The notes under the pieces: generated by a model
Database searches by the model: none
Told to the model about the DNA's origin: nothing
What the model saw: only the letters and a program-made list of their open reading frames with translations
Shown here: positions 50,629 through 51,410 of the stretch, one piece after another
How positions within the stretch are numbered: the stretch's first letter is position 1
How the letters are laid out: the number at the start of each line of letters is the position of its first letter
Assembly: GCF_003018255.1 (NCBI RefSeq)
Contig: NZ_CP027440.1
Strand: one strand, 5' to 3'
DNA length: 64,000 nt
Source of the DNA: Escherichia coli
GTDB taxonomy: Bacteria; Pseudomonadota; Gammaproteobacteria; Enterobacterales; Enterobacteriaceae
Position numbers and translations under genes: made by a program

Positions 50629-51410
50629 AGAACGTCCAGACTACACCCGCCTGAGTTGTGCTGCTTTCTTCACAGGAGAAACGGCTGTCGATACCAAGCG
50701 TTAGCCCCGTCAATGTTTGCTCAAAGCCAGCTCCCGCATCAGTGTTCACGCTGTTGCGGCTGTTAATTGCCGAACTCCACATCGCCGCCCTTTACGCTAC
50801 CAAGACGCTCACGCACGGTGTCCAGTTCTGCATCAAATACCAGCGGTTGTGCTGCCGCCATATTCAGCACATCCGTGGTTGAAGGGGGCATTTGTACGCG
50901 ATTCTCTGCGAGACTCCAGCTATGGTTGCCATTATCCAGCAAGGTATATTCATACGTACTGATATCAACAACGCCTCCGGCATTGCCCAACGTAAATGCC
51001 GCATCACCGCGCCCTCCTTTAATCGTGGGATCAGTCGCCGCGCCATAAACCTGTAGCACTCCATTATTGATCGTAGTCTGATTTACCGCGCCACCCATTT
51101 GAACAATTTGATAACCATCATTTAACACTGCGTATTCTGCGGTGCCATTTATTTCAACGTACTGATATCCCCCGTTAATTTTAGTATTACTACTTACACC
51201 AAATTCTTATATATGCTGTTCTCCGCCAGGATTGATTTTCGTATTATTGGCGGCCCCATAAACCAGCTGGATATCTTTTTCCAGGACAACACCATCAACT
51301 GTCTCACCATACTCAACAGTTGATGCCAATGCTATGGGTGAATATAACGCTGTAGCCACCAGAACAGATATTGCGGAACGACAAAGAGAAACAGAACCAG
51401 ATTGGTGCAT
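50629..51410 (-). pseudogene. yejO: Degraded autotransporter (yejO-like) remnant: signal peptide, short passenger fragment and C-terminal barrel tail in a different frame
   Basis: Signal peptide ORF (51207-51410) ends at an in-frame TAA. Same frame continues with beta-helix-like passenger repeats to 50763. A ...QAGVVWTF terminus, typical of an autotransporter barrel end, lies in another frame ending at 50629. Confidence 0.45.

Follow-up and report, generated by a model that had tools for sequence, protein, structure and literature searches.

The window, meaning the whole analysed stretch of 64,000 nucleotides from Escherichia coli (contig NZ_CP027440.1), carries the yejO locus at 50627-51410 on its minus strand, with narP on one side and tRNA-Pro(GGG) and yejM on the other (Table 1). 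The tRNA gene is annotated at the matching place in all compared genomes, and neither an IS element nor foreign DNA is found between yejM and narP in the window. The AT-rich region separating the divergent genes narP and yejO presumably holds the promoters of both, the yejO promoter being termed only putative in the literature (PMC11677980). A simple scan for sigma-70 consensus promoters that covered this intergenic region returned no match, with 2.9 expected from shuffled sequences. An earlier note on this DNA, drawn up without database searches, had described AT-rich surroundings of about 1.2 kb. The AT-richness itself is evident, with a GC content of 0.38-0.44 over ~51000-51750 (the narP-yejO intergenic region and the adjoining 5' part of yejO), but it extends over ~0.75 kb, as the GC content over 50550-51000 is 0.49-0.53.

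Table 1. Features of the yejO locus, fragments of the remnant and lesions relative to intact yejO (window coordinates).
Feature	Coordinates	Strand	Basis and remarks
yejM	48614-50374	+	intact neighbour
tRNA-Pro (anticodon GGG), proL position	50449-50525	+	ARAGORN; Rfam tRNA 54.9 bits; convergent with the yejO remnant
Hairpin and U-run downstream of tRNA-Pro	50534..50565	+	RNA fold -15.8 kcal/mol, z = -4.4; probably the proL terminator
Hairpin and U-rich run just 3' of the yejO stop	50584..50617	-	RNA fold -21.3 kcal/mol, z = -6.3 versus shuffles; probably the yejO terminator
yejO fragment 3	50627..50782	-	ORF list, 51 codons; original downstream frame, +1 versus start (offset 628 nt)
Junction of 633-bp in-frame deletion	50656..50657	-	gene positions 1930-2562 absent, 211 codons
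yejO fragment 2	50763..51206	-	frame-0 translation, in the frame of fragment 1; ends with TAA at 50763-50765
Site of 14-bp deletion	50787..50788	-	gene positions 1785-1798 (TTAATTACGATACG) absent; frameshift
Junction of 1161-bp in-frame deletion	51009..51014	-	gene positions 401-1561 absent, 387 codons; single GGGCGC left
Nonsense codon, AAA (Lys68) to TAA	51207..51209	-	gene position 202, A to T
yejO fragment 1	51207..51410	-	ORF list; start codon, Sec-type signal peptide and first passenger residues; 67 codons, premature TAA
narP-yejO divergent intergenic region, AT-rich	51411..51729		GC 0.38-0.39; colinear with the region upstream of intact XH992 yejO
narP	51730-52377	+	neighbour

A scan for consensus terminators made no call at the hairpin 3' of yejO, and its three terminator-like matches within the remnant, which look like chance, were set aside. 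Apart from a gammaproteobacterial ribosomal protein L25 leader elsewhere (46708-46733, plus strand; 46.9 bits, gathering score 34.1), the Rfam scan of the whole window at gathering thresholds returned only the tRNA at the interval, and a non-coding RNA or other element was rejected on these grounds as an explanation of it. Part of tRNA-Pro together with its downstream hairpin (window 50474-50567) resembles positions 19082-19173 of a 44.6-kb E. coli plasmid (NZ_CP148393.1) over 92 bp at 84% identity, and no annotated feature underlies the plasmid segment.

Reading frames, lesions and domain content

The remnant falls into three fragments. The first is an open reading frame of 67 aa (51410..51207) that begins MHQSGSVSLCRSAISVLVATALYSPIALASTVEY and aligns over codons 1-67 to intact XH992 YejO. 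Its signal peptide was read from the sequence as MHQSGSVSLCRSAISVLVATALYSPIALA, followed by S (…SPIALA/STVEY, the slash marking the end of the peptide), and shows only synonymous differences from that of intact YejO. In the second fragment, the 1161-bp deletion has fused passenger residues 69-134 to a C-terminal portion of the pertactin-like domain with the linker, and past the 14-bp deletion the translation is out of frame up to its stop codon; the frame-0 translation includes TKINGGYQYVEINGTAEYAVLNDGYQIVQMGGAVNQTTINNGVLQVYG, and the listed open reading frame is 51128..50763. The third fragment (ORF 50782..50627) carries the beginning of the beta-barrel domain (MWSSAINSRN…GIDSRFSCEESST), which the 633-bp deletion has fused to the final 9 codons (TQAGVVWTF), and it closes with ...QAGVVWTF and the native TGA at 50627-50629. 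The earlier note had recognized the same arrangement, i.e. a signal-peptide ORF closed by an in-frame TAA, a continuation of this frame to a stop at 50763 and a barrel-type C-terminus in a different frame, and each of these elements was reproduced, the continuation by direct translation in frame 0. The different frame of the C-terminal ORF is explained by the 14-bp deletion, which shifts the frame.

As intact reference, yejO of XH992 was used (2592 bp, 863 aa, WP_024175761.1), which likewise lies between narP and tRNA-Pro/yejM. In a global alignment, the window is 95.7% identical to this gene over 1,030 aligned nt, with four lesions inside the gene and, beyond its stop codon, two small indels. 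The gene has shrunk from 2.6 kb to 0.78 kb by three deletions, and a premature stop has been added. The 1161-bp deletion takes out most of the passenger, and the 633-bp deletion removes most of the beta-barrel and fuses ...SRFSCEESST to the C-terminal nonapeptide. Start codon, signal peptide and putative promoter region are retained at one end, the final 9 codons with the stop codon and the terminator hairpin at the other. The alignment bears out the view that this is an IS-free, deletion-plus-nonsense derivative of an autotransporter gene. A single deletion had been implied; loss by deletion stands, and its number is refined to three (1161, 14 and 633 bp) next to a separate nonsense mutation. 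The intact copy that the earlier note proposed to look for exists elsewhere in E. coli, XH992 being one example.

The domain content of the fragments reflects these losses. Intact YejO of XH992 matches the Pfam families AIDA (170 bits), Pertactin (153 bits) and Autotransporter beta-domain (155 bits). Fragment 2 retains a match to Pertactin (E=7.6e-13) that covers profile positions 79-120 of 121 only, and its AIDA repeat scores 14.3 bits, under the cut-off of 27. Fragment 3 matches the Autotransporter beta-domain (PF03797) at profile positions 1-45 of 255 only (E=2e-4; 21.7 bits, under the cut-off of 26), and the 67-aa stub matches no Pfam family. Together with the nucleotide identity, the Pertactin and beta-domain E-values place the likeness between the window and yejO far beyond chance, and the similarity to autotransporters presumed in the earlier note is thereby confirmed.

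Measured against a classical type Va autotransporter, the window allele offers an N-terminal Sec signal peptide, as read from the sequence. The extended beta-helical passenger, with AIDA repeats and a complete pertactin-like/autochaperone region, has lost 387 codons, and the C-terminal beta-barrel (PF03797) is incomplete, with 211 codons gone and only the last 9 codons after the junction. Nor does one open frame run from signal peptide through passenger to barrel, as it is broken by the TAA at codon 68, the frameshift and the stop at 50763-50765. Orthology to yejO is established by the position between narP and tRNA-Pro/yejM and by nucleotide homology over the retained parts. The window thus has in common with XH992 the order narP - yejO - tRNA-Pro - yejM, the start codon, the signal peptide, the C-terminal ...NTQAGVVWTF and the stop codon; unlike XH992, it lacks the 1161, 14 and 633 bp, carries a stop at codon 68 and is without AIDA repeats and without the part of the beta-barrel at profile positions 46-255.

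In K-12, yejO is a pseudogene interrupted by IS5 (PMC11005336; PMC11677980), as the earlier note had correctly stated; in an MG1655 derivative, the IS5 transposase gene is inserted past the first 69 bp of yejO. Locus and inactivity are common to K-12 and the window. The K-12 coding sequence is, however, essentially full-length (with an annotated downstream part of 2,544 bp) and merely split by IS5, whereas in the window deletions have removed two thirds of the gene and an IS is absent. These states represent two independent routes of inactivation.

Related alleles and their distribution

Several E. coli genomes carry remnants that share some or all of the lesions found in the window. In 23AR0806 and JNE23-011, all four are present at identical positions, and PGAP labels the locus in both as a 'frameshifted; internal stop; incomplete' autotransporter pseudogene; inside the gene, 23AR0806 differs from the window by 3 substitutions only. 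CFT073, LF82, NRG 857C, Nissle 1917 and ABU 83972, in which the locus spans 1,496 bp, share the nonsense codon and the 633-bp and 14-bp deletions, and their remnants are 98.7-99.3% identical to the window; unlike the window, they keep 155 bp between two GGGCGC repeats, with a 1005-bp and a 1-bp deletion in place of the 1161-bp one, and would represent an earlier stage of the decay. In LF82, CFT073 and JA0265, the passenger deletion comprises 1005 bp (positions 472-1476, junction microhomology AG), and a 1-bp deletion at 1561 converts GGGCGGC to GGGCGC, so that two GGGCGC stand exactly 155 bp apart. Of the four lesions, UTI89 and PAR lack only the 14-bp deletion; the nonsense codon and both large deletions (1161 and 633 bp) are the same as in the window. 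Gene position 202 is T in the window, 23AR0806, JNE23-011, LF82, CFT073, JA0265, UTI89 and PAR and A in XH992, E2 and VTB97379v. The PAR allele (locus extract 821-1618) contains, besides the stop at codon 68, an extra one at codon 93 (TAT/TAC to a TAG-type codon; ...NGTAE*SV), which is a sign of continuing decay.

VTB97379v (NZ_CP178682.1, locus extract 1811-2578) has both large deletions and neither the stop nor the frameshift, and its frame is open over 255 aa from the signal peptide to ...VVWTF. Within its first ~330 bp, ten substitutions typical of intact alleles are found, a pattern that points to recombination at the 5' end more than to an ancestral or selected form.

The distribution of these lesions was determined in a collection of 5,426 complete E. 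coli genomes by megablast of a 1341-bp interval (50380-51720). This interval was matched in 5,425 of the 5,426 genomes at a single chromosomal locus adjoining tRNA-Pro, and the annotation under the matches reads 'yejO: autotransporter YejO' or autotransporter pseudogene. Short queries centred on the junctions, which seed matches only across the junction itself, were used for the single lesions. The 633-bp deletion (junction 50-mer) was detected in 1,121/5,426 genomes (20.7%), including UTI89, and the nonsense haplotype (45-mer) in 1,047/5,426, among them CFT073, Nissle 1917 and UTI89; none of 40 evenly sampled rows of the latter is annotated as intact yejO. The 1161-bp junction (44-mer) occurs in 360/5,426 genomes (6.6%), and a further 616 match only the right-hand 31 bp of this query, which is the expectation for a precursor that still has two repeats. 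The 14-bp deletion (junction 50-mer) is the rarest, with 175/5,426 genomes (3.2%), including Nissle 1917, NRG 857C and ATCC 25922. All four lesions together are present in at least 17 records, counted as single-piece 1341-bp rows among the matches listed, with a ceiling of ~130 obtained by subtracting at least 43 listed 1,496-bp alleles from the 175 carriers of the 14-bp deletion; the summary counts merge the window type with the LF82 type, as pieces 155 bp apart are joined in the search. An annotated yejO spanning ~3.15 kb was found in ~23 of 40 records sampled at even steps, and intact-length alleles thus make up roughly three fifths of the collection.

The 633-bp junction and the replacement of AAA by TAA at codon 68 are identical to those of the remnant group represented by CFT073, UTI89 and LF82, to which the window belongs. 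Its decay state is not private, since the components are common to hundreds to ~1,100 genomes. The collection contains no genome identical to the window. Over the locus (50380-51720), the highest identity is 99.6%, to 23AR0806 from New Zealand, and over 24 kb of flank (26000-50400) it is 99.8%, to JNE112863 and JNE23-011, both from humans in Japan and both with the same remnant. The PGAP product name was also considered as a proxy for open versus broken frames among the 360 carriers of the 1161-bp junction and was rejected, because UTI89 is named 'pertactin-like' and yet has an internal stop; in an even-step sample of these carriers, the names 'pertactin-like passenger' and 'autotransporter beta-barrel' occurred at 30:30.

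Proposed decay history and alternative explanations

The interval is very probably a dead remnant of yejO at its normal place, the intact gene encoding a classical (type Va, AIDA-I/pertactin-like) autotransporter of 863 aa. An autotransporter product is impossible from the window allele, which provides neither a barrel nor a passenger: the barrel is reduced to its first strands and its last strand, the passenger to ~130 N-terminal residues and a pertactin tail, and a stop intervenes at codon 68. What could be translated, if the promoter fires, is at most the signal-peptide stub of 67 residues.

A stepwise history can be proposed from the comparison of alleles. The ancestor of a large strain group (CFT073, LF82, Nissle 1917, UTI89 and ATCC 25922, which we take to be phylogroup B2 strains) would have gained the nonsense codon as well as the 633-bp and 1005-bp deletions; to judge from the alleles shared with CFT073, UTI89 and LF82, the background of the window would be B2 too. 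A subsequent 1-bp deletion (GGGCGGC to GGGCGC) would then have given rise to another GGGCGC, 155 bp further downstream than the existing copy, and slippage or recombination between these 6-bp repeats, of which the single remaining GGGCGC and the missing segment are the signature, would have eliminated 155 bp, so that the deletions add up to 1161 bp (1005 + 1 + 155). The 14-bp deletion is linked to A1763/G1782 in every sampled allele, which suggests that it arose once, on this haplotype. The 155-bp collapse is seen both with and without the 14-bp deletion, and as four combinations of the two deletions exist, one tree can accommodate them only if recombination or recurrence is invoked. The window, which combines the two, requires either a second independent slippage or a crossover in the ~200 bp between the sites (1562-1763).

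Neutral decay fits the lesions that accumulate in relatives, where independent further events such as the second stop in PAR and the IS5 insertion in K-12 indicate relaxed constraint. It also fits the near-absent detection of yejO by RNA-seq in K-12, where the gene is among the least detected in a compendium of 3,376 data sets (PMC10392735), and its score as 'missing' from ST131 (PMC5654935).

Retention of a function by the remnant appears highly improbable. It would require export to the periplasm of a small peptide, made either from the 67-codon ORF (the signal peptide followed by ~38 mature residues) or by a restart further downstream. In its favour, start codon and signal peptide are intact, as is the intergenic region upstream, all of them colinear with intact alleles, and VTB97379v offers an uninterrupted in-frame version of 255 aa; the latter, however, resembles a recombinant 5' end and not a conserved form. 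The stub has no family match, the simple scan gave no consensus promoter, and lesions are still piling up in relatives (the 14-bp frameshift, the second stop in PAR and more SNPs). The poor detection of yejO in K-12 (PMC10392735) points in the same direction, the comparison being imperfect in that the K-12 allele has IS5. There is just as small a chance that the remnant is not wholly inert, be it by export of the 67-codon product or, in strains such as VTB97379v, of a 255-aa mini-YejO, or by selection, over neutral slippage, for a 155-bp collapse that restores the frame lost with the 1-bp deletion.

Even less probable is a decay driven by tRNA-Pro as a hotspot of integration and excision, for example through imprecise excision of an island that removed parts of yejO. 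The earlier note had pointed to tRNA-adjacent loci as hotspots of such variation, and in Shigella flexneri serotype 1c the tRNA-Pro that separates yejM from yejO does serve as a region of prophage attachment (PMC4924310); in DSM 103263, moreover, the gene beside the tRNA is not yejM. The proximity to the tRNA nevertheless does not explain the decay, as both large deletions are internal to yejO and end at short matches, while the tRNA-proximal end of the gene is preserved, with the last 9 codons, stop codon, terminator hairpin, tRNA and yejM all in place. At the junctions, matching sequence is limited to 2-6 bp and nothing resembling an att site or an IS is seen, and the absence of foreign DNA between yejM and narP in the window argues against an island as well. 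Assemblies do contain single-base and short-indel errors, but the suggestion that faulty sequencing or assembly produced the stop and the frameshift, in a shortened gene that is otherwise open, has nothing specific in its favour and is effectively refuted by the population data, given that the exact nonsense haplotype recurs in 1,047 genomes and the exact 14-bp junction in 175, that both changes are linked to flanking SNPs and that the barrel would be short of 211 codons even without them.

The locus is an ordinary and already known pseudogene, its structure being annotated by PGAP in related genomes and related remnants being carried by about one fifth of the E. coli genomes sequenced. For annotation, the locus should be recorded as a yejO pseudogene and its three ORF fragments should not be called genes; the import beyond this is small. 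The deletions account for yejO being 'missing' in gene-presence screens of ST131-type strains (PMC5654935). The nested lesions (633-bp, nonsense, 1005/1161-bp and 14-bp) could serve as lineage markers within the group of CFT073, UTI89, LF82 and Nissle 1917, and they make the locus a small, clean case of a pseudogene eroding step by step: a 1-bp deletion would have led to a 6-bp direct repeat and the repeat to a 155-bp deletion.

Two further alleles were noted in the course of the comparison. In DSM 103263, a hypothetical protein is encoded beyond tRNA-Pro (annotated with 78 nt; locus extract 3082-3427) and similarity to the window ends at the tRNA, which suggests an insertion or island at this site. 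The same strain and E2 (locus extracts 611-2980) carry an otherwise intact yejO with an in-frame passenger deletion of 222 bp (gene positions 502-723), annotated as a normal protein of 789 aa (WP_000554212.1); the length of the passenger repeats therefore varies among apparently functional alleles.
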